Part shown: piece by piece, positions 1 to 59,759 of the stretch
Position numbering within the stretch: position 1 is the stretch's first letter
Layout of the letters: each line of letters opens with the position of its first letter
Assembly: GCA_964016885.1 (NCBI GenBank)
Contig: OZ024741.1
Location: forward strand, 23,250,001-23,314,000
Source of the DNA: Eledone cirrhosa
Lineage: Eukaryota
DNA length: 64,000 nucleotides
Direction: 5' to 3'
Position numbers and translations under genes: made by a program
Notes under the pieces: model-generated
What the model was told of the DNA's origin: nothing
Seen by the model: only the letters and a program-made list of their open reading frames with translations
Databases searched by the model: none

Positions 1-140
1 ATATATATATATAAATGTTTATTTATATATATATATGTTTATATATATATATATATATATGTTTATATATATATATGTTTATATATATATATATATGTTT
101 ATATATATATATATATGTTTATATATATATATATATATAT

Positions 141-600
141 ATTAGAATTGGAGCTCTGAAATAGCAATATATATATGGATGTATATATAATGTATTTTGC
201 AATACACTTTATGCTTAATTAAAAGCATTTTGAAGACCGTTTGCTATTGTTTTAGAGTAGTGACAAATTCACTTACTTTAATCTCAGCAAACAGGGGAGA
301 TAAGCCGACAAGGCCTTGTTTCGCTTTTGTTGAAGCTTATCAAGGCTAACTACCCCTCCTGTCTACTGAGATTACTGATGTTATATTCTTATTGAATTCT
401 AGTAAACATTCAGGAACTGATTATACAGAGCGATTGTTGGTCAGGCAGAAATTAAAAATTAGAATTGGAGCTCTGTTTGCTGAGATTAAAGTAAGTGAAT
501 TTGTCACTACTCTAAAACAATAGCATACGGTCTTCAAAATGCTTTTAATTAAGCATAAAGTGTATTGCAAAATACATTATATATACATCCATATATATAT
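141..600 (-). mobile_element. Non-coding fold-back element: one ~317-bp hammerhead-bearing monomer plus a partial inverted copy; Penelope pLTR/retrozyme-like
   Basis: ATTAGAATTGGAGCTCTG at 141 and 458; 474-600 is the reverse complement of ~168-293; flanked by (TA)n; shares blocks with the 21881-23115 monomer (CTCTGAAATAGC, TTTTGAAGACC, CAGGAACTG, GGCAGAAATT). Confidence 0.75.
302..348 (-). ncRNA. Type I hammerhead ribozyme, U3-A8 core variant
   Basis: Minus strand AGCC-UUGAUAA-GCUU caaca AAAGC-GAAA-CAAGGCCUUG-UC-GGCU; stems I-III form, GUC cleavage triplet. Confidence 0.75.
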
Positions 601-760
601 ATGTTTGTTAATATATCCATTTGTTAATATATCGTATTTTTACTCCAATAATTTGTTGAGTGCTTTATATCAGTTATAAAAATATTTGCTTGTTGTATCC
701 CAACAATTTAAATGGAACTTCTACATATATATATATATATATATATATGTTTATATATAT

Positions 761-2034: not shown

Positions 2035-4589
2035 GAATGTATGTTTGTTTGTTTGTCCAAAGATATAAACGAAGAAAGAGAAATCAACGTATATTCAAAC
2101 AGAGAGTGAAAGAGCGAGTAGTCTGGCTGCTTTGAACCACTCCCTATATTAGACTGTCTCTAAAGTTATAAACGGAGAAAGAGAAATCAACGTATGGACA
2201 AAGAGAGAGTGAAAGAGCAACGTATAGACAAAGAGAGAGTGCTATAAACGGAGAAAGAGAAATCAACGTATAGACAAAGAGTGAGTGAAAGAGCGAGTGT
2301 GAAATTTTTTTAATTAAAGATAATTTCAATAGAATTAGTATTCTCTCTTTAATTTAATATAATTTCAATAGAATTAGTAAATTCTCTCTCTAATTTAATA
2401 TAATTTCAATAGAATTAGTATAGTGTCTGTTTCACATTACTTCCCTTCCACTCCCATTACAGGGAATTCTTTTTCAGCTAGCCCTTAACTAAGTGCTGTA
2501 ATTTGATATCTTCATTTCGTCTGTCCTTATTTTCCTGACCTGGACACATACGTGGACCGACATCATTCCAAGAATTGAGAACAGTAAACGGTCAAGTATG
2601 TGCCACTTATCGTGAAGCTTGCCAAGAATTAAATCTTCTTGAAAATGATGGACACTTCACTCGCTGATGCATCGAATACTGCTCGACCAAAGCAAATATG
2701 CACATTATTCTCAATAATATTGACAACGTGCTTCCCATCAAATCCAAAAGATCTTTGGGAAAAATATAAAGACTACACGAGTGAAGACATCCTACATCGT
2801 TTGCGTGCAACAAATCAAAATATGAATATTCAATTCACACAAAATGTGTATAATGAAGCATTGGTTTCCATTGAGGTCATATGTTTAGCAATCGCTAACA
2901 AAACATTGGTACAATTGGGAATGCCTGCGCCGAATCGATCTGTAAACGACATTTTCGATCGTGATTTGCAACGAGAAACAAACTTTGATGTCGCCGAATT
3001 GGGTACATTTGTTCAAACGAATCTTCCCAAATTGCTACCAGAACAACGCATAGTATATGACCAAATTATGCAGGCAATTATAAGTCAAAGCGGCGGATTG
3101 TATTTTATAGATGCGCCCGGTGGTACAGGCAAAACTTTTCTCATTTCACTTATTTTGGCAACTATACGATCAGAAAATAATATTGCACTGGCAATCGCAT
3201 CATCTGGAATTGCGGCAACTCTTTTAGATGGTGGCCGAACAGCACATTCAGCCCTGAAATTGCCATTGAATATGCAAATCGCTGAGACATCAACATACAA
3301 TATTACCAAAAATTCTGGTATAGGTAAAGTACTCCAATCATGTAAAATCATTATATGGGACGAATGTACTATGGCGCACAAAAAAATCATTGGAAGCGCT
3401 TAATAATACGCTAAAAGATTTGAAAGGAAATGAACAGCTCTTCGGTGGCACACTCATTTTATTGTCTGGTGATTTTCGACAAACTCTACCAGTTATACCG
3501 CGATCAACACCTGCTGATGAGCTTAATGCATGTCTCAAATCATCAGTTTTATGGCGACACGTACAGAAATTAACTTTAAAAAACAATATGCGTGTACAAC
3601 TACAAAATGACGCATCCGCTGAACGTTTCACAAAACAATTGCTGGATATTGGGAATGGGAAAATGGTAATCGATGATTCCACAAAATGTATCACATTGCC
3701 AACAAATTTCTGTAGAATCACGGCAACCAGAGACGAACTGATTCACAAAGTGTTCCCAAATATTGCGCAGCATTACAAAAATCATCAGTGGCTCAGTGTA
3801 TGTGCTATATTAGCAGCCAAAAACACCGATGTTAATGCCATTAATTTCAGCATTCAAAACGAAATAACAGGCGAAGCGACAATGTATAAGTCCATCGATA
3901 CTGTAATGAATCAAGACGAAATTATCAATTATCCAATTGAATTCTTGAATTCACTTGATTTGCCAGGCATGCCACCGCACATTTTAACATTGAAAATTGG
4001 CGTGCCTATCATCCTTCTCCGAAACATCAATACACCACAACTTTGCAACGGTACCAGACTTTCAGTGAAAAAGACGATGAACAATATCATCGAGGCTACA
4101 ATTTTAAATGGAAAATTTAAAGGAGAAGATGTACTCTTGCCACGCATCCCAATCATTCCAACAGATACGCCATTCGATTTCAAACGTTTGCAGTTTCTGG
4201 TGCGACTCGCCTTTGCAATGACTATCAACAAAGCACAAGGACAATCGCTACAAGTGTGTGGACTAAATTTAGAAAATCCATGCTTCTCACATGGACAGCT
4301 GTATGTGGCTTGCTCACGCGTCGGTAAACCTTCTGATTTATTCGTGTACGCACCAGAAGGAAAAACAAAAAACATTGTGTATCCAAAAGCACTTCAGTAA
4401 AACAAATTAAATGTTCTTATAACGAATTTTCTTTAAATTCGTCAGTCATTCAGTCATTTAAAGATAAATGTTAAAATCTAAAAAATAGAAACTAAATTAC
4501 AGAAGTTTTTAAATAACGATTAAAATGTTAATATTATTCTTTTCTAAATAAGCTTTTTAACACTGAGCAAAGCCGGGTAGCTCCGCTAG
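2021..4589 (+). mobile_element. Helitron, internally deleted (no Rep/HUH motifs seen)
   Basis: PIF1-type helicase remnant; 3' hairpin GAGC..GCTC 4565-4583 then CTAG 4586-4589 followed by T; 5' boundary approximate, inside (TA)n; subterminal repeats 2080-2420. Confidence 0.85.
2554..4400 (+). pseudogene. Helitron RepHel C-terminal PIF1-like SF1 helicase, frameshifted
   Basis: Motifs DAPGGTGKT, IIWDE, GDFRQ, LCNGTRL, AMTINKAQGQ, HGQLYVACSRV; frame change at the A-run ~3380-3387. Confidence 0.92.
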
Positions 4590-6829: not shown

Positions 6830-9800
6830 GTGTGTAGATGTGTGTGTCTGAGGGGGTAGCTGTGAGTGTATGTACAAGTCAACCAACATAAGCCTTTTAT
6901 TTCTAAATTTTCTAAACTATCTAAGTATTTGACTCTAACCAATATTTTAAGTATTACCTCCCCACATTAATTCCTCAATTTGTATGTGTGGATGTGTGTG
7001 TGTGTCTGTGGAGGTGGGTGTGAGTGTATGTGCAATGCAAGCCAACCTACATAAGTCTTTTTATTTGTAAATTTTCTACTCTAATCATAATTTTCAGTAG
7101 CACCACTCCACATAAATTCCTCAATTTAAGAATGACCTGTAGTATCTATTTCATACTATTAAACTTAATTGAATATATATCTGACCAGAAAAAAAAACTG
7201 CTACAACTCTGGGAAACTAAACCAGAACAACCTGCCACCCTCTACACACCATCATAAACTGCGAGCAGGGTACAAATTGTTGTCCTTAAATGCTCGCAGT
7301 TTATGCAACAAGATACATCTGTTCGAATCCTACGTCAGAAGCATCGACCCTGACTTCATCACAGTCACGGAAACATGGGCACATTCCTTACTCTGTGATG
7401 GGGTTTTCAGCATTACTGGGTACAACCTTTTCCGCAAGGACCGCATTAACCGCCGTGGTGGTGGTGTGATGGTCTACGTTCGTTCAAACTTTTCGGTAAT
7501 TCCTTGCGTTGATTTGAACGAATCACAGGAAGAAGTTTTTTTCTGTGACATACGTATGACCATGTCAACACTTCTGCTTGGTGTTGTTTATCGCCCCCCA
7601 AACTACCATCAGGACACACAGCTTTGCGATATCCTCAGAGTTGCTTCCAAGAAAACAGCCACTTATGTGTTTATTGCAGGTGACTTCAATCATCCTGAGA
7701 TCGATTGGGAAACCTTTCGTTGGTCACAAGGTGCAAACGATTTCCTTGAACTAGTGCTGGACTCAAACTGGTCACAAGTAGTCACCTCTCCAACAAGAGG
7801 TGACAACACTTTGGACCTGATCTTCACCACTACTCCTGAAGTGGTTATCAGTTGTACTACTGAGGAACCTCTAGGCGACTCTGATCATGCTATGATCATT
7901 GCCAATCTGGCACTTGAGGGCAGCAACAAAAACCAGAGCCATCTCCAATCTGCTTGCTTTGATTGGAAGAGGGCGGATTGGAACTTGTACTGCACTGAGC
8001 TACAGCGCCCAAACTGACATGAGATGTATAACTCTGGAGATGTGAACACTATACTCCAGAGCATCCTGGACTCAATATGGATAGCGTGTACAGCATCGGT
8101 GCCACATAAGCGGAAAAATAACCACCCCAAAAGTGCAATTTGGGAAACTTCAGCGGTCCGACTTGCCAGGAAAGAACGTCGGAACGCTGAACGGGAATAT
8201 AAACTGCATAAATCAGATGCCAACAGAAAAAAGCGGAATAAATCTTCTAACCATCTCAAGCAAGTGACAAAGAAGGCAGTGCTTGAATTTGAACAGTGCA
8301 TCGCAACCAATCCTGACAGTAAGGTGTTCTGGAAATATGTTCATTCAAAGCAGAGACCTCACTCTCCAGTTGGTCCTCTTCGCAATCCCCACACAAGCCA
8401 GATCACTGACGATCCCAAGGAATGCGCAGAACTCATTGCTGAGTGCTATGCAAGTATTTTTACTGTTGAAAACCAGAATGTACCATCTCCACCATCTCTA
8501 ACATCAAATTCCATAACAACTATGGAATTTACACCTGCAATGTTGCGACGTCACCTTAAGAATAAGCGCAACTATGCCTCCCCTGGTCTTGATGGTGTGA
8601 CATACCTGCTTCTCAAACGTGGCGGGTATTTCCTTTTGCGCCAGCTTTCTTTCTTCTTTCAATACTGTCTCAACAATGGTGCTACTCCGGAGCAGTGGAA
8701 AACTGCCAGTGTCATTCCCCTGTTCAAAAAGGGCAACCGCATGTCACCTGCCAACTATCGTCCAGTCAGTCTTACTAGCTGTATGGCCAAACTGATGGAA
8801 TCCTGTGTCAGAGAAACACTTTGGAACTTCTGGAGCTCTCACAGCCTCATCCGGCCCTCACAGTTTGGATTTATCCCTAACTCCAGCTGCTGTGATCAGC
8901 TTATCGAGTTCCTTGAGGACATCACCCGGATCACTGACAGCGGCTCATGGGTGGATGTTGTTTACCTTGACTTTGCTAAGGCTTTTAATTCTGTGCCACA
9001 CAAAAGACTTATGGCAAAACTCTCTGCAATGGGTGTGAGGGATGATCTTTTCGACTGGTTGAAATCCTTCATTCTCAGCCGAAAAGAAGTAGTCACGGTT
9101 CTAGGACAGCATTCTTCACCATATGAGATGTCATCTGGTGTACCACAGGGATCTGTTCTTGGTCCTATTTTGTTTGTGGCATATATTAATGACATAGATG
9201 CCAACTTACAGAATGCCACGGTACTAAAATATGCAGATGACATCAAGCTGTACCTTGAAATCAAAAGGACTGATCCTGAAATTTACAACTCTTTCCTACA
9301 ATCAGACCTGGACACAATGCAGCAATGGATCACAGACTGGCAACTGAAGCTGGCTGTGGACAAGTGTACCACCATGCATTTTGGAAGGAAAAATCCAGCG
9401 TCCACATATTCCCTCCACAACACTGATATCAAAAAGTCCTCTTGTGAACGTGACCTGGGCATTACTGTCAGCAACGATTTGCGTTGGACAAAGCATGTCT
9501 CTAAGATTGTCAAGAAGGCCGAGGTTGTCTTGGCATCACTCAGCAAGACCTTTGTTAGCCGCTCTCCAGCCATCTATTTAAAACTGTATACAGCTATGGT
9601 GCGACCGCACTTGGAATTCGCATCATCAGTCTGGAACCCCTATCTTGCTCAGAACATTGACCTCCTGGAAACTGTTCAGAGACGTGCAACCAAGCGCATA
9701 CCCTCCATCAGACACCTACCATACTCTGAACGCCTTGCTTCCCTGGGCATGGATTCATTGAAGCTCCGACGTCTGGCAATGGACTTGGTGAATACCCACA

Positions 9801-10330
9801 AAGTTTTTAACCATCTCGCCAATTGCAACCCTGAGCGCCTCTTTGATCTCCATGTGTCTAACACACGTGGACATGCCTACAAGATCAGAAAACAGCACAG
9901 CTCCCATGACTTCCGTAGACATTTTTTCACGCTCAGAGTTGCTGAAGCATGGAACAAACTGCCTGCGTCAATTGTTAGCTGCCGAGACACTGCATCCTTT
10001 AAGACACTCATGCTTCCCGAAATACGCCAAAACTACACCTGATGTACCCCTTCCATACACATGCACACATGTGTGTATCATGACTCGTGCACTGTTCATT
10101 TTACTGATGTTTGTGCATTGCCCTATGTACTGTACATGCACTTTTTTGATGAGTTGTGGTGCACCTGGGCACTGTACGCAATATTTCATTATTGTTATTA
10201 TTATTATATCATGACTCATACACTGTTCATTTTCCTGACATTTGTACATTATTCTATGTACTATACATGCACCTTTGATGAGTTGTAGTGCACCTGAGCA
10301 CTGTACACAATAATTTCATTATCATTATTA
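6830..10330 (+). mobile_element. Near full-length CR1-clade LINE
   Basis: APE plus RT ORF, tandemly duplicated 5' and 3' UTR segments, (ATT)n tail; other copies at 18790, 38594, 63105. Confidence 0.9.
7169..10042 (+). pseudogene. CR1 ORF2 (AP endonuclease plus reverse transcriptase) with one in-frame stop
   Basis: LNARSL, ETW, GDFN, SDH; YLDFAKAF, GVPQGSVLGP, YADD. ORFs 7169-8017 and 8024-10042 are in frame; TGA 8015-8017 is TGG in the paralog (~19633). Confidence 0.92.
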
Positions 10331-10578: not shown

Positions 10579-10634
10579 ACTGCCTGATGAGGTCATAGCC
10601 ATTGAATGGCTATCATCGAAATATATATAGCAGT
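10579..10634 (+). ncRNA. Type I hammerhead ribozyme in a probable Penelope 3' end remnant (~10333-10680)
   Basis: ACUGC-CUGAUGA-(stem II AUAGCCA/UGGCUAU)-GAAA-UAUAUA-UA-GCAGU, followed by AATAAA. Confidence 0.85.
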
Positions 10635-10679
10635 AAATAAAGGATTATGAGTTCATGCAATTGACTTATGTTTCGTCAC

Positions 10680-14017: not shown

Positions 14018-14075
14018 ATACCTGATGATATCACCGGATTCATATGGAACCCGGTCATTGAAATGATCATAGTAT
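14018..14075 (+). ncRNA. Type I hammerhead ribozyme
   Basis: AUAC-CUGAUGA-(ACCGG..CCGGU stem II)-GAAA-UGAUCA-UA-GUAU then AATAAA; stem III ATGATCAT palindrome. Confidence 0.82.
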
Positions 14076-14230
14076 AATAAACATTTCAAGGATTTACACC
14101 AGTCCAGCCTCCTGTTATTTTATTTCATTTATATATATGTGTGTTTATATATATATATATGTTTATATATATATATATATATGTTTATATATATATATGT
14201 GTGTGTTTATATATATATATATGTTTATAT

Positions 14231-18707: not shown

Positions 18708-18789
18708 GTATGTAGATAGATATACAATTACTTTCTACTCTCTCTCTCTTTCTCTCTCTCTCCTTTATATATATATATATATGTATATA

Positions 18790-21362
18790 TGTACCCACAA
18801 CAACTGACAATAAAGAAACTGAAAAACTCTGGGAAACTAAATCAGAACAACCTGCCATCCCCTGCACATAATCATAGACTGGAATCAAGGTACAAATTGT
18901 TGTCCTTGAATGCACGTAGTCTATGCAATAAGATTCATCTTTTTGACTCCTACGTCAAAAGTATCAACCCTGACTTCATTACAGTCACGGAAACTTGGGC
19001 ACATCCCTTACTCTGTGATGGGGTTTTCAGCATGACTGGCTACAACCTGTTTCGTAAAGACCGCATTAATCGTGGTGGTGGTGGTGTAATGGTCTACATT
19101 TGGTCAAGTTTGTCGGCAATTCCTTGTGTTGATTTGAACCAATCACAGCAGGAAGTTTTTTCTGCGATACACGTATAACCATGTCAACACTGCTACTTGG
19201 AGTCGTTTACCGTCCCCCAAATAACCATCAGGACACTCAGCTTTGTGATATCATCAGAGCTGCTGCCAGGAAAACAGCCACTTATGTTTTCATTGCAGGA
19301 GACTTCAATCACCCTGAGATTGACTGGAAACCTTTCGTTGGCCGCCAAGGGCAAATGACTTCCTTGAGCTAGTGCTGGACTCGAATTGGTCCCAAGTAGT
19401 CACCTCCCCAACAAGAGGTGACAACACTTTGGACCTACTCTTCACCACTACTCCTGAAACAGTCATTAGTGTTACTGTTGAGGAACCTTTAGGTGACTCT
19501 GATCATGCTATGATCATTGCCAATCTATCCCTCATAGGCAGTAACAAGAACCACAACAATCTCCAAACTGCTCACTTTGACTGGAATAAAGCAGACTGGA
19601 ACTGTTACTGCACCGAGTTGCAACGGCCAAACTGGCTTGAGTTCTACGGCTCTGGAGATGTCAACACTGTACTCCAGAACATCCTGAGCTCAATATGGAC
19701 AGCATGTGCAGCATCGGTGCCACGTAAGCGGAAAAAACATCCCAAAAGCGCAATTTGGGAGACTGCAGCAGTCCGTCTTGCCAGAAAAGAACGGTGCAAT
19801 GCTGAATGTGAGTACAAACTTCACAAATTAGACATTAATAGGAAGAGGCGAAATACATCGTCCAACCACCTCAAACAGGTGACAAAAAAGGCAGTGCTTT
19901 AATTTGAGCAGCGCATAGCAACCAGCCCTGACAGTAAGGCGTTCTGGAAGTATGTTCACTCAAAGCAGAGGCCTCACTCTCCAGTTGGTCCTCTTCACAA
20001 TCCCCACACAAGCCAGGTTACTGACGACCCCAAGGAATACGCAGAGCTCATTGCTGAATGCTATGCAGGCATTGTCACTATTGAAGACCAGAGTGTACCA
20101 TCTCCACCACCTATGACACCGGACTCTATTACAACCATGGAATTTACATCTGCAATGCTGCGACGTCACCTAAAAAATAAACGCAACCATGCCTCTCCTG
20201 GTCTTGATGGTGTTACGTACCTGCTTCTTAAACGTGGTGAGTACTTCCTTCTGCACCAGTTATCACGCTTCTTCCAATTCTGTCTGAACAACGGTGCTAC
20301 TCCAGAACAGTGGAAAACTGCCAGTGTCATTCCTCTGTTCAAAAAGGGTGACCGCACATCACCTGTGAACTATCGTCCAGTCAGTCTTACTAGTTGCATT
20401 GCCAAACTGATGGAATCCTGTGTCAGAGAAACACTTTGGAACTTCTGGAACTCTCACAGTCTTATCCGGCCCTCGCAATTTGGATTTATCCCCAAATCCA
20501 GCTGCTGTGATCAACTTATCGAGTTTCTTGAAGACATCGCCCGGATCACTGATGGCGGCTCATGGGTGGATGTTGTTTACCTTGACTTTGCGAAAGCTTT
20601 CAATTCTGTGCCACACAAAAGGCTTATGGCAAAACTCTCTGCAATGGGTGTGAACAATGATCTTTTTAACTGTTGAAGTCCTTCATTCTCAGTCGAAGAG
20701 AGGTAGTCACGGTTCTGGGACAGCATTCCTCACCATATGAGATGTCATCTGGTGTACCACAGGGATCTGTTCTTGGCCTCCTTTTGTTTGTGGCATATAT
20801 TAATGAACCTCTGGAACCTCTATCTTGCTCAGAACATTGACCGTGTGGAAACTGTTCAGAGACGTGCAACCAAGCGAATACCCTCCATCAGGCATCTACC
20901 ATACTCTGAGCGCCTTGATTCCCTGGGCATGGATACATTGAAGCTCCGACGCCTGGCAACTGACTTGGTAAACATCCACAAAATTGTTAACCATCTTGCC
21001 AACAACAACCCTGAGTACCTTTTTGATTTCATGTGTCTAACACACATAGGCATGCCCACAAAGTCAGAAAACAGTATAGTTCCTATGACTTTCGGAAACA
21101 TTTTTTCACGCTCAGAGTTGCTGAAGCGTGGAACAAACTACCTGCGTCAGTTGTTAGCTGTCGAGACACTGCATCCTTTAAGGCCTCCATGCTTCCCGAG
21201 ATTCGCCAACACTACACCTAATATTCCCCCTCCATACACATACACACATGTATATCATGACTCATACACTATTCACTTCATTTGTGTATTATTCTATGCA
21301 CCTTTGACGAGTTGTAGTGCACCTGAGCACTTTACACAATAATTTCATTATTATTATTATTA
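18790..21362 (+). mobile_element. CR1 LINE copy, frameshifted, with deletion of the YADD region at ~20806
   Basis: Collinear with 7190-10330; jumps from AYIN(D) to WNLYLAQNID. Confidence 0.92.
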
Positions 21363-21565: not shown

Positions 21566-21855
21566 TCATCATCATCATTTCAGTTTACGTCCGCTTTTTC
21601 CCTGCTTGCAAGGGTGGGACGGGAACTGATTCTGGCTTGATTTCTACAGCTGGATGCCCTTCCTAACACCAACCTCATTTACAGTGAGTGCTGGCACCTC
21701 CACGACCACTTTGCAGTGGAGTAAACTACAGCTGAGTAAACTGGAGAAAATGTGAAATAAAGTGTCTTGCTCAAGGAAACAACACATCACCCAGTCTGAG
21801 AATTGAACTCACAACCTTTCGATTGCAAGGCCAATGCTCTAACCACTAAGCCTCC
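21566..21855 (-). mobile_element. CORE-like SINE
   Basis: Reverse-strand copy of 17882-18269. Confidence 0.85.
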
Positions 21856-22041
21856 ACTATATATATATATATATGTTTATAAATTGGAATAAATGCTCTG
21901 AAATAGCGATATATATGTGAATATAGACATAGAATATTCGAAAATATTCTGTATGTTTATAATAAACATTTTGAAGACCTAATCGCTATAGAATAGAATA
22001 CGTCACGTATTACAATTAGATTCTCGATAAAAGCAAGGGAA

Positions 22042-22084
22042 GTAATCTACGCGTTTCATTCTTGTTAGAAATCATCAGGACTAC
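22042..22084 (-). ncRNA. Minimal type I hammerhead, copy 1
   Basis: Reverse complement of 22632-22674. Confidence 0.88.
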
Positions 22085-22351
22085 ATATCCAGTGCTTTTA
22101 TCGAGAATGACACAGCTAGAGACTTATAGAATACTTAGCTGTGTACAGGAACTGGTTTGAAAGAGCGGTTGCCGGTCCGGCAGAAATTAGAAATTGGAAT
22201 AAATGCTCTGAAATAGCGATATATATGTGAATATAGACATAGAATATTCGAAAATATTCTGTATGTTTATAATAAACATTTTGAAGACCTAATCGCTATA
22301 GAATAGAATACGTCACGTATTACAATTAGATTCTCGATAAAAGCAAGGGAA

Positions 22352-22394
22352 GTAATCTACGCGTTTCATTCTTGTTAGAAATCATCAGGACTAC
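22352..22394 (-). ncRNA. Minimal type I hammerhead, copy 2
   Basis: Reverse complement of 22632-22674. Confidence 0.88.
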
Positions 22395-22631
22395 ATATCC
22401 AGTGCTTTTATCGAGAATGACACAGCTAGAGACTTATAGAATACTTAGCTGTGTACAGGAACTGGTTTGAAAGAGCGGTTGCCGGTCCGGCAGAAATTGG
22501 AATAAATGCTTATTTATTCCAATTTCTAATTTCTGCCGGACCGGCAACCGCTCTTTCAAACCAGTTCGTGTACACAGCTAAGTATTCTATAAGTCTCTAG
22601 CTGTGTCATTCTCGATAAAAGCACTGGATAT

Positions 22632-22674
22632 GTAGTCCTGATGATTTCTAACAAGAATGAAACGCGTAGATTAC
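22632..22674 (+). ncRNA. Minimal type I hammerhead, copy 3
   Basis: GUAGUC-CUGAUGA-uUUCU aaca AGAAu-GAAA-CGCG-UA-GAUUAC; stem I extended by TTCTCGATAAAAGCA/TGCTTTTATCGAGAA. Confidence 0.9.
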
Positions 22675-22941
22675 TTCCCTTGCTTTTATCGAGAATCTAA
22701 TTGTAATACGTGACGTATTCTATTCTATAGCGATTAGGTCTTCAAAATGTTTATTATAAACATACAGAATATTTTCGAATATTCTATGTCTATATTCACA
22801 TATATATCGCTATTTCAGAGCATTTATTCCAATTTCTAATTTCTGCCGGACCGGCAACCGCTCTTTCAAACCAGTTCCTGTACACAGCTAAGTATTCTAT
22901 AAGTCTCTAGCTGTGTCATTCTCGATAAAAGCACTGGATAT

Positions 22942-22984
22942 GTAGTCCTGATGATTTCTAACAAGAATGAAACGCGTAGATTAC
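22942..22984 (+). ncRNA. Minimal type I hammerhead, copy 4
   Basis: Identical to copy 3, 310 bp downstream. Confidence 0.9.
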
Positions 22985-23611
22985 TTCCCTTGCTTTTATC
23001 GAGAATCTAATTGTAATACGTGACGTATTCTATTCTATAGCGATTAGGTCTTCAAAATGTTTATTATAAACATACAGAATATTTTCGAATATTCTATGTC
23101 TATATTCACATATATGTTTATATATATATGTTTATATGTATAAATGTTTATATATATATATATGTTTATATATATATGTTTATATATATATCTATGTTTA
23201 TATATATATGTTTATATATATAAATGTTTATATATATATATATATGTTTACATATATATGTTTATATATATATGTTTATATATATATCTTTATATATATA
23301 TATGTGTTTATATATATATATGTTTATATATATATATGTTTATATGTTTATATATATGAATGTTTATATATATGAATGTTTATATATATAAATGTTTATA
23401 TATATAAATGTTTATATATATAAATGTTTATATATATAAATGTTTATATATATATATCTTTATATATATATATATGTTTATATATATAAATGTTTATATA
23501 TATATCTTTATATATATATGTTTATATATATATATGTTTATATATATATGTTTATATATATATATCTTTATATATATATGTTTATATATATATATATGTT
23601 TATATATATAT

Positions 23612-24282
23612 ATATACGTGAACGGCAAAGCATAAACGAACTAAGGAAAAAATTAGAGATAAGAGGGATCAGATGTTGTTTACTCGAGAGAAGGCTGCGT
23701 TGGTATGGACACGTGATGCGCATGAAAGTCGATAGCTGTATTACAAAGTGCAGGGCAATAAAGATAGACGGTAGCCACGGAATAGGCAGACCTAGAAAAA
23801 CATGGGATGAGCTGATAAACTCCGACCTCACACACTTACACCTCTCCAAGACAATGTCACTGGACCGTGACCTTTGGCGGTACTCAGTAACAGAGAAGAC
23901 CCGCCTTGCCAGTAGGCATCTCTAACAAAATACACCCCTCCCGCCGCCACCCCCACCCCATCCACACCACCCCGTTCTATGTAAAGTTATGTTGGTGCCG
24001 CGCCATCCAGGCCGAAACAAATGAGATCGTGTAGGTGTCACGACAAAAAAACACACAGTCCACGCTGTAATGTGGCCGTGTAGGCAACACGGTAAAAACC
24101 TCCCAGACCCACACTGTAAATGTGGTTGGTGTTAGGAAGGGCATCCAACTGTAGAAAACCTGCCAGACAGTCCTATGCGAGCAAGACAATCACTCTTGCC
24201 TCAAGTGGGACTACCCCCGTCCAAACCCATGCAAGCGTGGAACACGGACGTTAAACGTTGATGATGATGATGATGATGATGA
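23612..24282 (+). mobile_element. RTE LINE 3' fragment
   Basis: [18 protein letters not shown]...; nearly identical to the 3' part of 43751-44988; (GAT)n tail. Confidence 0.92.
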
Positions 24283-27992: not shown

Positions 27993-28699
27993 TTGGATCT
28001 AATAATAATTCTATTTTACATTAAAATCATTATATAGAGTATTTAGTTTGTAGTAGTGCAGACATTTGTTAAAGTTTTGAGAAAATTATTCAACTAGTGT
28101 TACATAAGTTGTTACATAAGCACTAGTAGAAGATCCATTTAAAAAACCACCTCCTGATTCAATCTGATAAGAGGTACTATTTTATATTATGTAACTGTTG
28201 TATGACGTCAAATGTCATTTGAAACCTTAAAACTTTTCTCTTTTCTCTTTCCAACTCTTCACAAAGTTAGTTATATAAAACGTTAAGTATTAGTAATTCT
28301 AGATATCTACATATCCCTTTGTTATTTTCTTAATTTCAGTCATTCGACTATGACAGTGATCTGACATTGTCTTCAATGGCTTGATTTTGTCATTTTGTAC
28401 ATTTTGTGATACTATTTAATCAAGCTTGGAGAGAGAAGTATGTCACAGTTGAGTGAACAGCCATGAAGATATGCAGTCTGGATGGACTAAAATAGCACAA
28501 GATATTTTCTTGTCAGTTGCCATTTAACCTGATGGTAATACACCCTTGGCCAGAATTCAAAAGATTATCATCATCATAACTATTTAATGTCCATTTTTCC
28601 ACGTTAGCATGGGTTAGATGAGTTGTCCTGTTGTCTTGCTTATACAGAACTGCTTTTGGCTTGGTTTCTGCAGCTGGATGCCCTTCCTAATGCCAACCA

Positions 28700-31600
28700 C
28701 ATTTACAGTGTGTGCTGGGTGCTTTTTGTTGTGACACCTACATGACCACTTTACAGTGTGGACTAAGTGCTTATTGTTATGACACCCACATGACCACTTT
28801 ACAGTGTGGACTGGGTGTTTTTTTGTTCTGACACCCACATGACCACTTTACAGTGTGGACTGGGTGTTTTTTGTTGTGACACCCACATGACCACTTTACA
28901 ATGTGGACTGGGTGTTTTTTGTTCTGACACCCACATGACCACTTTACAGTGTGGACTGGGTGTTTTTTGTTGTGACACCCACATGACCACTTTACAATGT
29001 GGACTGGGTGTTTTTTGTTCTGACACCCACATGACCACTTTACAGTGTGGACTGGGTGTTTTTTGTTCTGGCACCTACATGACCACTTTACAGTGTGGAC
29101 TGGGTGTGTTTTGTTCTGACACCCACATGACCACTTTACAGTGTGGACTGGGTGCTTTTTGTTCTGACACCTATATGACCACTTTACAGTGTGGACTGGG
29201 TGTTTTTTGTTATGACACCTATATGACCACTTTACAGTGTGGACGGGGTGTTTTTTGTTATGACACCCACATGACCACTTTTCAGTATGGACTGGGTGCT
29301 TTTTGTTCTGACACCTATATGACCACTTTACAGTGTGGACTGGGTGTTTTTTGTTATGACACCCACATGACCACTTTACAGTGTCGACTGGGTGTTTTTT
29401 GTTCTGACACCTACATGACCACTTTACAGTGTGGACTGGGTGTTTTTTGTTCTGACACCTACATGACCACTTTACAGTGTGGATTGGGTGTTTTTTGTTA
29501 TGACACCCACATGACCACTTTACAGTGTGGACTGGGTGTTTTTTGTTATGACTCCCAGATGACCACTTTACAGTGTGGATTGGGTGTTTTTTGTTATGAC
29601 ACCCACATGACCACTTTACAGTGTGGACTGGGTGTTTTTTGTTATGACTCCCAGATAACCACTTTACAGTGTGGACTGGGTGTTTTTTGTTATGACACCC
29701 GCATGACCACTTTACACTGTGGACTGGGTGTTTTTTGTTCTGGCACCTACATGACCACTTTACAGTGTGGACTGAGTGCTTTTTGTTATGACACCCACAT
29801 GACCACTTTACAGTGTGGACTGGGTGTTTTTTGTTCTGACACCTACATGACCACTTTACAGTGTGGACTGGGTGTTTTTTGTTATGACACCCACATGACC
29901 ACTTTACAGTGTGGACTGGGTGTTTTTTGTTCTGGCACCTACATGACCACTTTACAGTGTGGACTGGGTGCTTTTTGTTCTGACACCCACATGACCACTT
30001 TACAGTGTGGACTGGGTGTTTTTTGTTCTGGCACCTACATGACCACTTTACAGTGTGGACTGGGTGTTGTTTGTTGTATCACCTACATGACCACTTTACA
30101 GTGTGAACTGGGTGTTGTTTGTTGTATCACCTACATGACCACTTTACAGTGTCGACTGGGTGTTTTTTGTTCTGGCACCTACATGACTACTTTACAGTGT
30201 GGACTGGGTGCTTTTTGTTCTGACACCCACATGACCACTTTACAGTGTGGACTGGGTGTTTTTTGTTATGACACCTACATGACCACTTTACAGTGTGGAC
30301 TGGGTGCTTTTTGTTATGACACCCACATGACCACTTTACAGTGTGAACTGGGTGCTTTTTGTTCTGACACCCACATGACCACTTTACAGTGTGGACTGGG
30401 TGTTTTTTGTTATGACACCCACATGACCACTTTACAGTATGGACTGGGTGTTTTTTGTCCTGACACTCACATGACCACTTTACAGTGTGAACTGGGTGCT
30501 TTTTGTTCTGACACCTACATGACCACTTTACAGTGTGGACTGGGTGTTTTTTGTTATGACACCCACATGACCACTTTACAGTGTGGACTGGGTGTTTTTT
30601 GTTATGACACCTACATGACCACTTTACAGTGTGGACTGGGTGCTTTTTGTTATGACACCCACATGACCACTTTACAGTGTGGATTGGGTGTTTTTTGTTC
30701 TGACACCAACATGACCACTTTACAGTGTGGACTGGGTGTTTTTTGTTCTGACACCCGCATGATCACTTTACAATGTGGACTGGGTGTTTTTTGTTCTGAC
30801 ACCTACATGACCACTTTACAGTGTGGACTGGGTGTTTTTTGTTCTGGCACCTACATGACCACTTTACAATGTGGACTGGGTGTTTTTTGTTCTGGTACCC
30901 GCATGACCACTTTACAGTGTGGACCGGGTGCTTTTTGTTGACACCCACATGACCACTTTACAGTGTGGACTGGGTGTTTTTTGTTATGACACCTACATGA
31001 CCACTTTACAATGTGGACTGGGTGTTTTTTGTTCTGGCACCCGCATGACCACTTTACAGTGTGGACTGGGTGCTTTTTGTTGACACCCACATGACCACTT
31101 TACAGTGTGGACTGGGTGTTTTTTGTTATGACACCTACATGACCACTTTACAGTATGGACTGGGTGTTTTTTGTTATGACACCCACATGACCACTTTACA
31201 GTGTGGACTGGGTGTTTTTTGTTCTGACACCTACATGACCACTTTACAGTGTGGACTGGGTGTTTTTTGTTATGACACCTACATGACCACTTTACAGTGT
31301 GGACTGGGTGTTGTTTGTTGTATCACCTACATGACCACTTTACAGTGTGGACTGGGTGTTTTTTGTTCTGACACCCACATGACCACTTTACAATGTGGAC
31401 TGGGTGTTTTTTGTTCTGACACCCACATGACCACTTTACAGTGTGGACTGGGTGCTTTTTGTTCTGACACCTATATGACCACTTTACAGTGTGGACTGGG
31501 TGTTTTTTGTTGTGACACCTACATGACCACTTTACAGTGTGGACTGGGTGTTTTTTGTTCTGACACCTACATGACCACTTTACAGTGTGGACTGGCTGTT

Positions 31601-34600
31601 TTTTGTTCTGACACCCACATGACCACTTTACAGTGTGGACTGGGTGCTTTTTGTTCTGACACCTATATGACCACTTTACAGTGTGGACTGGGTGTTTTTT
31701 GTTATGACACCCACATGACCACTTTACAATGTGGACTGGGTGTTTTTTGTTCTGACACCCACATGACCACTTTACAGTGTGGACTGGGTGTTTTTTGTTC
31801 TGACACCCACATGACCACTTTACAGTGTGGACTGGGTGCTTTTTGTTCTGACACCTATATGACCACTTTACAGTGTGGACTGGGTGTTTTTTGTTATGAC
31901 ACCTACATGACCACTTTACAGTGTGGACTGGGTGTTTTTTGTTATGACTCCCAGATAACCACTTTACAGTGTGGACTGGGTGTTTTTTGTTATGACACCC
32001 GCATGACCACTTTACACTGTGGACTGGGTGTTTTTTGTTCTGGCACCTACATGACCACTTTACAGTGTGGACTGAGTGCTTTTTGTTATGACACCCACAT
32101 GACCACTTTACAGTGTGGACTGGGTGTTTTTTGTTCTGACACCTACATGACCACTTTACAGTGTGGACTGGGTGTTTTTTGTTATGACACCCACATGACC
32201 ACTTTACAGTGTGGACTGGGTGTTTTTTGTTCTGGCACCTACATGACCACTTTACAGTGTGGACTGGGTGCTTTTTGTTCTGACACCCACATGACCACTT
32301 TACAGTGTGGACTGGGTGTTTTTTGTTCTGGCACCTACATGACCACTTTACAGTGTGGACTGGGTGTTGTTTGTTGTATCACCTACATGACCACTTTACA
32401 GTGTGGACTGGGTGTTGTTTGTTGTATCACCTACATGACCACTTTACAGTGTCGACTGGGTGTTTTTTGTTCTGGCACCTACATGACTACTTTACAGTGT
32501 GGACTGGGTGCTTTTTGTTCTGACACCCACATGACCACTTTACAGTGTGGACTGGGTGTTTTTTGTTATGACACCTACATGACCACTTTACAGTGTGGAC
32601 TGGGTGCTTTTTGTTATGACACCCACATGACCACTTTACAGTGTGAACTGGGTGCTTTTTGTTCTGACACCCACATGACCACTTTACAGTGTGGACTGGG
32701 TGTTTTTTGTTATGACACCCACATGACCACTTTACAGTGTGGACTGGGTGTTTTTTGTTCTGACACCAACATGACCACTTTACAGTGTGGACTGGGTGTT
32801 TTTTGTTCTGACACCCGCATGATCACTTTACAATGTGGACTGGGTGTTTTTTGTTCTTACACCTACATGACCACTTTACAGTGTGGACTGGGTGTTTTTT
32901 GTTCTGGCACCTACATGACCACTTTACAATGTGGACTGGGTGTTTTTTGTTCTGGTACCCGCATGACCACTTTACAGTGTGGACCGGGTGCTTTTTGTTG
33001 ACACCCACATGACCACTTTACAGTGTGGACTGGGTGTTTTTTGTTATGACACCTACATGACCACTTTACAATGTGGACTGGGTGTTTTTTGTTCTGGCAC
33101 CCGCATGACCACTTTACAGTGTGGACTGGGTGCTTTTTGTTGACACCCACATGACCACTTTACAGTGTGGACTGGGTGTTTTTTGTTATGACACCTACAT
33201 GACCACTTTACAGTATGGACTGGGTGTTTTTTGTTATGACACCCACATGACCACTTTACAGTGTGGACTGGGTGTTTTTTGTTCTGACACCTACATGACC
33301 ACTTTACAGTGTGGACTGGGTGTTTTTTGTTATGACACCTACATGACCACTTTACAGTGTGGACTGGGTGTTGTTTGTTGTATCACCTACATGACCACTT
33401 TACAGTGTGGACTGGGTGTTTTTTGTTCTGACACCCACATGACCACTTTACAATGTGGACTGGGTGTTTTTTGTTCTGACACCCACATGACCACTTTACA
33501 GTGTGGACTGGGTGCTTTTTGTTCTGACACCTATATGACCACTTTACAGTGTGGACTGGGTGTTTTTTGTTGTGACACCTACATGACCACTTTACAGTGT
33601 GGACTGGGTGTTTTTTGTTCTGACACCTACATGACCACTTTACAGTGTGGACTGGCTGTTTTTTGTTCTGACACCCACATGACCACTTTACAGTGTGGAC
33701 TGGGTGCTTTTTGTTCTGACACCTATATGACCACTTTACAGTGTGGACTGGGTGTTTTTTGTTATGACACCCACATGACCACTTTACAATGTGGACTGGG
33801 TGTTTTTTGTTCTGACACCCACATGACCACTTTACAGTGTGGACTGGGTGTTTTTTGTTCTGACACCCACATGACCACTTTACAGTGTGGACTGGGTGCT
33901 TTTTGTTCTGAAACCTATATGACCACTTTACAGTGTGGACTGGGTGTTTTTTGTTATGACACCTACATGACCACTTTACAGTGTGGACTGGGTGTTTTTG
34001 TTATGACACCCACATGACCACTTTTCAGTATGGACTGGGTGCTTTTTGTTCTGACACCTATATGACCACTTTACAGTGTGGACTGGGTGTTTTTTGTTAT
34101 GACACCCACATGACCACTTTACAATGTGGACTGAGTGCTTTTTGTTCTGACACCTACATGACCACTTTACAGTGTGGACTGGGTGTTTTTTGTTCTGACA
34201 CCCACATGACCACTTTACAGTGTGGACTGGGTGCTTTTTGTTATGACACCCACATGACCACTTTACAGTGTGGATTGGGTGTTTTTTGTTATGACACCCA
34301 CATGACCACTTTACAGTGTGGACTGGGTGTTTTTTGTTATGACACCCGCATGTCCACTTTACACTGTGGACTGGGTGTTTTTTGTTCTGGCACCTACATG
34401 ACCACTTTACAGTGTGGACTGGGTGTTTTTTGTTATGACACCCACATGACCACTTTACAGTGTGGACTGGGTGTTTTTTGTTCTGGCACCTACATGACCA
34501 CTTTACAGTGTGGACTGGGTGCTTTTTGTTCTGACACCCACATGACCACTTTACAGTGTGGACTGGGTGTTTTTTGTTCTGGCACCTACATGACCACTTT

Positions 34601-36120
34601 ACAGTGTGGACTGGGTGTTGTTTGTTGTATCACCTACATGACCACTTTACAGTGTGGACTGGGTGTTGTTTGTTGTATCACCTACATGACCACTTTACAG
34701 TGTGGACTGGGTGTTTTTTGTTATGACACCCACATGACCACTCTACAGTGTGGACTGGGTGTTTTTTGTTATGACACCCACATGACCACTTTACAGTGTG
34801 GACTGGGTGTTTTTTGTTATGACACCCACATGACCACTTTACAGTGTGGACTGGGTGTTTTTTGTTATGACACCCACATGACCACTTTACAGTGTGGACT
34901 GGGTGTTTTTTGTTATGACACCCACATGACCACTTTACAGTGTGGACTGGGTGTTTTTTGTTCTGACACTCACATGACCACTTTACAGTGTGGACTGGGT
35001 GTTTTTTGTTCTGACACCCGCATGATCACTTTACAATGTGGACTGGGTGTTTTTTGTTCTGACACCTACATGACCACTTTACAGTGTGGACTGGGTGTTT
35101 TTTGTTCTGTCACCTACATGACCACTTTACAATGTGGACTGGGTGTTTTTTGTTCTGGCACTCGCATGACCACTTTACAGTGTGGACTGGGTGCTTTTTG
35201 TTGACACCCACATGACCACTTTACAGTGTGGACTGGGTGCTTTTTGTTATGACACCTACATGACCACTTTACAGTATGGACTGGGTGTTTTTTGTTATGA
35301 CACCCACATGACCACTTTACAGTGTGGACTGGGTGTTTTTTGTTCTGACACCTACATGACCACTTTACAGTGTGGACTGGGTGTTTTTTGTTATAACACC
35401 TACATGACCACTTTACAGTGTGGACTGGGTGTTGTTTGTTGTATCACCTACATGACCACTTTACAGTGTGGACTGGGTGTGTTTTGTTCTGACACCCACA
35501 TGGCCACTTTACAGTGTGGACTGGGTGTTTTTTGTTCTGACACCTACATGACCACTTTACAGTGTGGACTGGGTGTTTTTTGTTATGACACCTACATGAC
35601 CACTTTACAGTGTGGACTGGGTGTTGTTTGTTGTATCACCTACATGACCACTTTACAGTGTGGACTGGGTGTTGTTTGTTGTATCACCTACATGACCACT
35701 TTACAGTGTGGACTGGGTGTTTTTTGTTCTGACACCTACATGACCACTTTACAGTGTGGACTGGGTGTTTTTTGTTATGACACCTACATGACCACTTTAC
35801 AGTGTGGACTGGGTGTTGTTTGTTGTATCACCTACATGACCACTTTATAGTGTGGACTGGGTGTTTTTTGTTATGACACCCACATGACCACTTTACAGTG
35901 TGGACTGGGTGTTTTTTGTTATGACACCTACATGACCACTTTACAGTGTGGACTGGGTGTTGTTTGTTGTATCACCTACATGACCACTTTACAGTGTGGA
36001 CTGGGTGTTGTTTGTTGTATCACCTACATGACCACTTTACAGTGTGGACTGGGTGTTGTTTGTTGTGACACCTACATGACCACTTTACAGTGTGGACTGG
36101 CTGCTTTTTGTTGTGTCACC
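28700..36120. repeat. 48-bp tandem array (~155 units) with higher-order duplication, grown from a retroposon tail (tail at 28566-28700, minus)
   Basis: Unit GACACCCACATGACCACTTTACAGTGTGGACTGGGTGTTTTTTGTTCT; continuous with the GCTGGATGCCCTTCCTAA tail. Confidence 0.97.
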
Positions 36121-57909: not shown

Positions 57910-59759
57910 GTTAACCAGGTAATACTAGAAGGTGTCATACCAAAAGATTAGTGCAGTAGCATCATTGTCAACTGTTACAAAGGTAAAGGCGATGCACTAG
58001 ATAGAGGAAACTATAGAGGTATAAAGTTGATGGACCAGGTCATGAAAGTAACAGAAAGAGTTATAGCACAGTTGATTAGGGACCGGGTGAAAATAGACGA
58101 GATGCAATTTGGGTTTGTACAAGGAAGAGGCACCATTGATGCCCTCTTCCTTGTGAGGCAATTACAGGAAAAGTACCTAGCTAAAAGTAAGCGACTCTAC
58201 TTGGCATTTGTCGACCTTGAGAAAGCCTTTGACAGAGTTCCACGTGCAGTAATCTGGTGGGCTCTTAGAAAACTAGGAGTAGATGAATGGCTTGTGAAAG
58301 CGGTACAAGCCATGTATAGGGGAGCAGTCAGCAAAGTTAGGATTAGCAATGAGTATAGCGAGGAATTTAGCGTACAGGTTGGGGTCCACCAGGGCTCTGT
58401 TCTTAGCCCCCTCCTGTTCATCATAGTCCTGCAGGCAATAACGGAGGAGTTTAAGACCGGATGCCCATGGGAACTCCTGTATGCTGATGACCTCGCACTC
58501 ATAGCTGAATCTATGGTAGAACTAGAGAATAAATTCCAAACTTGGAAGCAGGGACTAGAAAGAAAGGGTCTCAAAGTCAACATGACAAAGACTAAGGTCC
58601 TTGTAAGTAGACGAGAAAACAGAACCCAGATCCCCTCAGGGAAATGGCCTTGCTCAGTATGTAGAAAAGGTGTAGGTAGGAACTCCATTCTCTGCCCCAA
58701 ATGCAAACAATGGGTACACAAGAGATGTAGCGGGATCTCAGGAAGCTTAATTAAGAATGTAGGCTTCACATGCAGTAGCTGTGGTGAGACAGCAAGCAGC
58801 AAACAGCCACAGGAAACAAGTACCACCAATCTCTGGGAGGGCTCTGTAGAAACAGTAGACAGCTTCTGCTACCTAGGTGACCGAATTAGCAGCGGAGGTG
58901 GGTGTTCAGAAAGTACAATAACTAGGGTAAGAACGGGATGGAAGAAGTTTAGGGAACTACTACCACTGCTAGCTGCAAACGGCTTCTCCCTCAGAATGAA
59001 AGGCAGACTGTATGATGCGTGTATCCGAACAGCAATGTTGCATGGTAGTGAGACCTGGACGCTGAAGGTGGAAGACTTACGTAGATTAGAGAGAAATGAA
59101 GCCTGCATGCTCCGATGGATGTGTAACAGTAATATACGTGAACGACAAAGCATAAATGAATTGAGAGAGAGACTGAGCATAAGAGGAATCAAATGCTGTG
59201 TGCAGGAGAGGCGGTTGCACTGGTATGGACATGTGATGCGTATGAAGGATGACAGCTGCATAAAAAGGTGCAGAGCACTAGAAGTTGATGGAAACCGCGG
59301 AGTGGGGAGACCCAAGATGACCTGGGATGAGGTGATAAAAGCTGACCTTACCCAATTACACCTCTCAAAGGCAATGACACATGACCGTGACTTCTGGCGT
59401 CACGCAGTAATACAGAGTACCCGACCTCCCATGGGTACAAGCTGAAGCATATAGACAATATGCCCCCCCCCCACACACACACACCCCACCGCAAGGTGGT
59501 CGTGGAGGTGCCACGGCAAAAAAGCACCCAGCCCACACTGTAAAGTGGACGTGTAGGCACCACGAAAAAGCACCCAGCACTCACTGTAAATGAGGTTGGT
59601 GTTAGGAAGGGCATCCAGCTGTAGAAATCAAGCCAAATCAGTTCCTGTATGAGCAAGGCATGGTCAGCCGACCAGACACTGCCCACAACAGGACAATCCG
59701 TCTAACCCATGCTAGCGTGGAAGAACGGACGTAAAACGGTAATGATGATGATGATGATG
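57910..59759 (+). mobile_element. 5'-truncated RTE-clade LINE (RT plus PHD-like finger), antisense in an ANKZF1 intron
   Basis: ORF 58027-59445: QFGF, FVDLEKAFD, GVHQGSVLSP, YADD, C4HC3-like finger; 3' UTR and (GAT)n. Confidence 0.95.

Follow-up and report, generated by a model that had tools for sequence, protein, structure and literature searches.

Two-armed arrays of a 310-nt hammerhead unit in Eledone cirrhosa: a non-LTR retrozyme probably inserted by rolling-circle reverse transcription

How does a palindrome, built from repeats of one non-coding 310-nt hammerhead unit, come to lie in a TA-rich stretch of a cephalopod chromosome? The question arises at positions 21881 to 23115 of the window, that is, the whole stretch of 64,000 nt of the Eledone cirrhosa genome (contig OZ024741.1) that was analysed. 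Non-LTR retrozymes of coral, mussel and axolotl have been shown to yield circular RNAs, which a Penelope-like enzyme was proposed in 2020 to reverse transcribe (PMC7229834). The route and the enzyme that return animal hammerhead circles to chromosomes have been a hypothesis since then; a 2026 preprint on vertebrate retrozymes favours local satellite expansion. The family to which the locus belongs lets genome data separate these rival models. The reading developed here is that the locus is a non-LTR retrozyme insertion, whose most likely origin is the twin-primed, rolling-circle copying of a single RNA circle into cDNA.

The original prediction described four 310-bp monomers, two in tandem followed by their near-perfect inverse, free of ORFs and inserted in (TA)n. 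The 310-bp tandem and its inversion stand; the arms, however, each consist of a partial, a full and a partial unit (Table 1), so that the outer ends lie ~30 nt apart in unit position (position 1 being the base directly 3' of the predicted cut). Two mutually inverted arrays of 310-bp period (21877-22502 and 22512-23115) include inverted arms of 592 nt each (21911-22502 and 22524-23115), and the inverse is as close as claimed: the arms differ by a single substitution, at 22568, and by a central slip of 7 nt. The absence of an ORF also holds, as the longest ATG-initiated frame has 30 codons, the circle form included; the RT plus GIY-YIG reading frame that marks an autonomous Penelope-like element is absent from the 310-nt unit. 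The flanks are TA-rich, as predicted, but form an imperfect (TA)n with a TATATGTT-type unit. On the left they hold an 18-bp candidate target duplication, inseparable from the microsatellite; on the right, the true end of the arm falls within 23108-23115, bases common to the TA target. The TA run that holds the insertion lies directly 3' of a SINE-like repeat (window 21570-21857) with a sub-threshold tRNA match at 21796-21852. No contig from runs X2, X4 and X5, which represent one sample, bridges the centre of the locus, a gap that proves nothing.

Table 1. Parts of the insertion, in window coordinates; strand is that of the hammerhead sense
Feature	Position	Strand	Remarks
Whole insertion	21881..23115	.	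head-to-head pair of 310-nt-unit arrays, 3' ends outward
Left target flank	21858..21880	.	TA-rich
Left arm, 'long' end	21883..22510	-	unit 151-310 (7-nt slip), 1-310, 1-165
'Tail'	21883..21917	-	unit ~131-165, at one outer end only
Type I hammerhead 4	22042..22084	-	predicted cut after 22048
Predicted excised 310-nt monomer/circle, left arm	22048..22357	-	identical to right-arm monomer
Type I hammerhead 3	22352..22394	-	predicted cut after 22358
Centre	22503..22523	.	joins both 5'-truncated arms
Right arm, 'short' end	22512..23115	+	unit 154-310, 1-310, 1-137
CCAAT	22519-22523		upstream of TATA-like motif and core
TATA-like motif	22585..22593	+	~45 nt upstream of core; also 22895-22903 and minus arm
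Extended stem I, 16 bp	22608..22696	+	22608-22623 with 22681-22696; covaries in relatives, every unit alike
Type I hammerhead 1	22632..22674	+	predicted cut after 22668
Predicted excised 310-nt monomer/circle, right arm	22669..22978	+	a prediction
Type I hammerhead 2	22942..22984	+	predicted cut after 22978
Right target flank	23110..23617	.	TA-rich, TATATGTT-type microsatellite

An intact type I hammerhead in a long stem I had been claimed for every unit, and this is what the locus contains: four identical cores (at +22638, +22948, -22388 and -22078), each with the 16-bp extended stem. Hammerhead 1 is built of a 6-bp stem I, the core, a stem II of 4 bp above a U-U, and a palindromic stem III. 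The plus-strand cut sites predicted on reanalysis are those named before, after 22668 and 22978. The Rfam match to Hammerhead_HH9 is sub-threshold (19.2 bits, against a gathering score of 52), so the ribozyme call is based on core sequence, folding and covariation; across the window at E up to 1, most Rfam matches paired microRNA families with TA repeats, and every match stayed under its gathering score. The 3.0-Gb genome contains 4,541 exact copies of a 37-nt hammerhead motif and none of the reversed-pattern control, so the motif is not there by chance. When the unit is aligned with 18 older relatives (19 sequences in all), 16 of 26 named pairs have changed on both sides and 88.6% of cells pair, in a structure that was drawn from these same sequences and whose outer two stem I pairs are poorly kept. 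None of 500 shuffles matches the real pairing, and slid controls reach 32-45%. Core pair 3-8 is C3-G8 in nine sequences and U3-A8 in ten, with no other state; U3-A8 is a published hammerhead variant of Penelope-like elements (PMC4209133). Covariation across the older relatives thus argues for a ribozyme under selection. Within the young family, fixed variants spare the core (0/34, against 8/134 for single-unit variants; Fisher p 0.36, and p 0.037 within the ribozyme), a weak signal of selection.

Folding models agree with the suggestion that the tandem pair could dimerise in cis: the free fold of 22600-23012 is predicted to be a double hammerhead, with the palindromes paired at a probability of ~0.88 and an energy of -109.9 kcal/mol, 16 below the -93.9 kcal/mol of two single hammerheads. 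The circle's best predicted fold is inactive, the active one costing 6.7 kcal/mol. By these predictions the hammerhead can be a switch, on in the dimer and off in the circle. At unit positions 2-3, by the cleavage/ligation site, one-base insertions of two kinds are fixed in eight arrays of the young family and put a bulge in stem I. Both CCAAT and the TATA-like motif are kept in older relatives and stand in the same order in autonomous pLTRs; the segment is a candidate internal promoter.

The palindrome is the normal insertion product of a large family. Genome-wide patterns gave 1,286 junctions of the long end with (TA)n and 1,232 of the short end; in the first 218 Mb of contig C1, a listed long end lies near 64 of 100 short ends, from which a total of some 1,800-2,000 insertions may be estimated. 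For an older, related family, one motif is matched 4,458 times. Ninety stretches of contig C1 were sampled, 10 at the first hammerhead matches and 80 at the first long-end matches; all of the sample comes from one contig, and 80/90 of it was chosen by the long end. Together with the window, and with two duplicate views dropped, it comprises 91 elements: eight are cut by an edge or by N, and of the 83 fully visible ones 78 are two-armed and five one-armed. Every one of the 78 is head-to-head, its long end at unit position 163-175 and its short end at 128-140, and 75 have TA at both sides; the tail measures ~26-35 nt, the exact figure varying with the assignment of the TA bases common to element and target. 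Median arm length is 3.2 units (at least two in 123 of 163 arms, at least ten in 12), and two arms are longer than the 7.5 kb fetched. The centre varies freely in position between family members: the 76 resolved ones comprise 41 microhomologies, 10 blunt joints and 25 joints with extra bases. Of 152 arm 5' ends, none falls at position 1, the cleavage site, and the ends spread over the unit; a pile-up at the cleavage site was an artefact of alignment boundaries and vanished on exact extension. Target duplications are mostly unreadable in TA flanks (24/78 are 'informative' by a loose rule, one unambiguous); L034 has a clear 15-bp duplication at a non-microsatellite site. At the centre of L037 (2599-2870) stands a 272-nt GC-rich insert, an unrelated repeat clustered on contig C25, to which it is 96-98% identical (40 matches scored of 190 candidates); L202 gave no Rfam match at gathering score, and the insert was possibly captured by template switching. 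Copies are dispersed and many, and show no LTR and no LTR-internal-LTR layout. In none of the 91 elements does the unit run into an ORF.

What was copied into these sites can be read from variants. They were called per unit over 255,992 bases, a total from which the 35 nt next to the centre and the outer junction, where assignment is ambiguous, had been excluded. Among 76 arrays with at least three copies of every site there are 34 haplotypes, 25 of them seen once, and in each insertion the units of the two arms have the same haplotype. Eleven variants occur in a single insertion each and are fixed there in the left and the right arm alike, in up to 24 of 24 units; those of L128 extend into the terminal partial units of both arms. 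Arrays diverge by 1.0% from one another and units inside an array by ~0.1%. The 134 single-unit variants, against ~15 multi-unit ones confined to 10 arrays, point to a one-burst genealogy. Across the 829 internal junctions that were crossed, a single substitution is clean, and two further calls come from a locus of poor quality. The haplotype changes at the same unit index of both arms in L121 and L100 and in one arm only in L092, a pattern that calls for template switching or for a multimeric template. The simplest reading of these sequences would be one circular monomer copied repeatedly in a single burst, with rare template switches. Near-identity of the units had been taken as a mark of recent origin; the family is young, as judged by the 1% between insertions, but the likeness of units within an insertion reflects the copying of one template.

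Penelope-type mobilisation, which had also been proposed, is close to certain. Penelope-like insertions leave an inverted truncated copy, a tail at one end and a microsatellite target (bioRxiv 10.1101/2021.04.23.441226), and the tail is the stretch between two reverse-transcription start sites (PMC11167929); the same two-start-site signature occurs in 78 of 78 two-armed copies, and the tail at 21883..21917 would lie between two such sites. The genome is rich in elements with RT plus GIY-YIG. Two young families, A and C, have a CxxC linker motif of the Neptune/Nematis type (bioRxiv 10.1101/2021.04.23.441226) and keep intact RT-endonuclease frames; copies are 97-100% identical (11 and 9 of 20 loci), target TA, and have the inverted anatomy with one short and one long end seen in the retrozyme. 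Measured from the hammerhead cut, ends lie at ~+76/+141 in family A and +124/+164 in family C, and at ~+130/+165 in the retrozyme. By this spacing alone, and among the small part of candidates scored (150 of 10,597 and 68 of 35,456), family C is the best candidate for a partner. A search for a parent pLTR in 70 Penelope-like loci (50 GIY-YIG and 20 with intact ORFs) gave separate insertions only, and none of the autonomous families represented there matches the unit in sequence.

The preferred account, in which a single circle was probably copied by rolling, would run as follows. The tandem array would be transcribed from the promoter-like CCAAT/TATA segment inside the unit; neighbouring hammerheads, pairing through the palindromic stem III, are predicted to excise a 310-nt monomer, whose ends stem I would hold together; and the monomer would be ligated into a circle, as its mussel and axolotl counterparts suggest. 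This circle is predicted to fold inactive and so would persist. A Neptune/Nematis-type protein, whose footprint is seen and whose chemistry is presumed, would cut (TA)n on both strands; cDNA would start at two fixed sites in the unit, one for each strand, which lie ~130 and 165 nt beyond the cleavage site; both cDNAs would circle the template several times, stop at random, and be joined, mostly by 1-6 nt of microhomology, into a palindrome.

The same element and enzyme could also have worked on a different template: an uncut linear multimer of the parent array, or a cut monomer whose ends are jumped, with the hammerhead trimming or dispensable. A Penelope-like protein in vitro had uncut RNA as its dominant and preferred substrate, hammerhead cleavage not being needed (PMC11167929); random 5' truncation fits a long linear RNA too, and so does the switch of haplotype at one index of both arms in L121 and L100. 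Against this, private variants fixed in all units of two long arms need a bottleneck of one unit, and most haplotypes (25/34) were seen once. A parent array copied with the observed unit-level variation should yield 36.6 shared variants at the same index, a figure that drops if single-unit variants mostly arose later by mutation or are errors of assembly; two arrays, L100 and L121, have a non-fixed variant at one and the same index of their arms. No arm stops at the cut site, junctions are clean, and the dimer is predicted to fold as an active double hammerhead, all of which makes a linear template rather unlikely. Viroid-like amplification of the circle into a homogeneous RNA multimer, reverse transcribed afterwards, accounts for the single haplotype of each insertion; it has been put forward in a review (PMC6765202), and cloned mussel circles were not matched by genomic copies (PMC7229834). 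It is nevertheless distinctly improbable, as it requires an RNA-templated polymerase and minus-strand intermediates, of which the analysis gave no sign, and the multimer would be expected, from the modelled folds, to cleave itself.

Satellite growth, in which short pLTR-like insertions expand later by unequal crossing-over, is the model offered for vertebrates (bioRxiv 10.64898/2026.07.22.740005), and a few arrays do have repeated variants, such as the period of seven in L035 and the four repeats in L106. We give it a slim chance: the excess of single-unit over multi-unit variants, and the private variants in the terminal partial units of both arms of L128, speak against it, as does, suggestively, the older family, where the first 100 matches listed for an exact pattern include only a single run of three. 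Finally, perfect inverted repeats are a known type of sequencing or assembly artefact, and a fold-back might be suspected. This is barely credible, since the arms end at different fixed positions and enter different flanks, 78 loci obey the rule with different centres, some holding foreign inserts, and an older decayed relative in the window has the same anatomy. That relative (window 136-602) is ~65-75% identical, two-armed, with long and short ends and a U3-A8 core; a weak Rfam HH9 match lies within it at 286-357.

A further feature of the variants is an excess of A-to-G changes: 10 of 31 fixed substitution types, against 9 of 105 single-unit substitutions (p 0.002). One of them, 276A>G in the UAG of stem I, occurs on five backgrounds, and 20A>G on three; nine of the ten A>G sites are paired in the predicted circle, compared with 58 of 92 adenosines, while by sites alone A>G stands to T>C as 10 to 5 (p 0.08). 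This hints at RNA editing of the intermediate, carried into DNA; selection that tolerates a change of A-U to G-U, or recombination between templates, would explain it otherwise. It is possible, although we would sooner doubt it than rely on it, that both strands of the story hold together: insertions would be fossils of single ribozyme-made circles, each copied simultaneously by a pair of Penelope-type enzymes, and would represent the first footprint of animal rolling-circle retrotransposition in a genome, and A-to-I edits would enter the germ line in all units and drive sequence evolution.

The family offers a test system: its template is non-coding and 310 nt long, its two start sites are exact, its target is (TA)n, and the genome that houses it also encodes intact candidate enzymes. 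It suggests a possible role for the hammerhead in Penelope-like RNA, as the dimer-on, circle-off switch. Some 2,000 kilobase-scale perfect palindromes would also be a likely source of double-stranded RNA and of genome instability.

The sequences hold other elements too. Type I hammerhead motifs with palindromic stem III stand at window 10584-10635 and 14022-14080, with a TA run a short way downstream of each; both are found again in L134 and L136 and so probably mark the ends of further families, Penelope-like or retrozyme. Another small hammerhead element, also two-armed and in (TA)n (L147:3650-3840, L140:7800-8030, L211), has a core and stem II almost as in the 310-nt unit, with ends ~70 nt apart. 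L141:7900-9901 is a head-to-tail array of ~490-510-nt units, each with a hammerhead built like that of the 310-nt unit (U-U, 4-bp stem II, palindromic stem III) and an internal TA run of variable length. The exact unit (window 22669-22978) occurs in runs X1, X3 and X6, which bear other organism labels, as one self-closing 340-nt contig at a depth of 10-15, free of variants and flanks; run X2 has 606 contigs. The plain reading is trace contamination, with transfer or an RNA circle as alternatives, and the contigs are not counted for a circle because tandem DNA, or cross-contamination at trace level, would look no different. The window further holds PIF1 helicase frames (2633-4400), presumably Helitron-like, partly broken LINE endonuclease/reverse-transcriptase frames (7169-10042, 18720-21342 and 57952-59445), and 155 copies of a 48-bp satellite (28696-36120), similar in its unit to 48-52-bp repeats scattered over other parts of the window. 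In protein comparisons the best named relatives came from bivalves in one case and from cnidarians and lancelets in another, with no cephalopod among them.

Where does the family stand among known systems? A literature search, with subscription papers, Repbase/Dfam and preprint supplements outside its scope, gave no account of the 310-nt family, of cephalopod retrozymes or of two-armed retrozyme arrays. Circle-templated insertion was proposed in 2020, and no genomic footprint of that step was found in print.

Head-to-head joints with microhomology have a counterpart in L1 twin priming, in which both target strands prime cDNA. Twin priming in L1 is occasional and splits one linear RNA; in the retrozyme it would be the rule, and both arms repeat the unit many times. 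Plant LTR retrozymes differ, with a type III hammerhead in LTRs, PBS/PPT and a 4-bp duplication, where the present family has type I and no LTR-internal-LTR layout.

Autonomous EN+ Penelope-like elements (Neptune/Nematis), like the retrozyme, form partial tandems with an inverted 5'-truncated second copy (bioRxiv 10.1101/2021.04.23.441226; PMC11167929; PMC4209133), have a tail of 30-40 bp at one end, microsatellite targets and two start sites (bioRxiv 10.1101/2021.04.23.441226; PMC11167929), and carry a hammerhead whose stem III is palindromic and whose core has the U3-A8 variant (PMC4209133). Unlike them the retrozyme has no ORF, its unit being a 310-nt miniature of a pLTR; its arms can exceed 24 perfect units, and the inverted arm is near-obligate (78/83).

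Vertebrate retrozymes (Li, Clavereau, Pollet 2026, bioRxiv 10.64898/2026.07.22.740005) likewise have tandem hammerhead units tied to Penelope-like elements. There the link is made by co-occurrence and pLTR phylogeny, here by the insertion footprint, no match to pLTR sequence having been found. That preprint ascribes arrays to local amplification, leaning to satellite-like expansion; in its accessible text no mollusc is sampled and tails and target sites are not analysed, and eight of nine predicted Xenopus retrozyme dimers gave no cleavage, a point against the preferred account. The family resembles metazoan non-LTR retrozymes (PMC7229834) in having a non-coding, low-GC tandem unit of ~300 nt, a type I hammerhead and thousands of copies. 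Mussel sets a mollusc precedent with a unit of 350-390 nt, and axolotl HHR_Amex2 has the same U-U at the base of stem II and a dimer that cleaves better (PMC7229834). Circles and cleavage were shown for those retrozymes, whereas the 310-nt family is known from DNA and predictions. Two-armed insertions with fixed short and long ends and one haplotype per insertion are found here and not described in the accessible text of that paper (PMC7229834), from which the words 'inverted' and 'target site' are absent. On every feature tested, namely unit size, lack of coding capacity, type I core and dispersed copies, the family is, judged by its sequence, a member of the non-LTR retrozymes.
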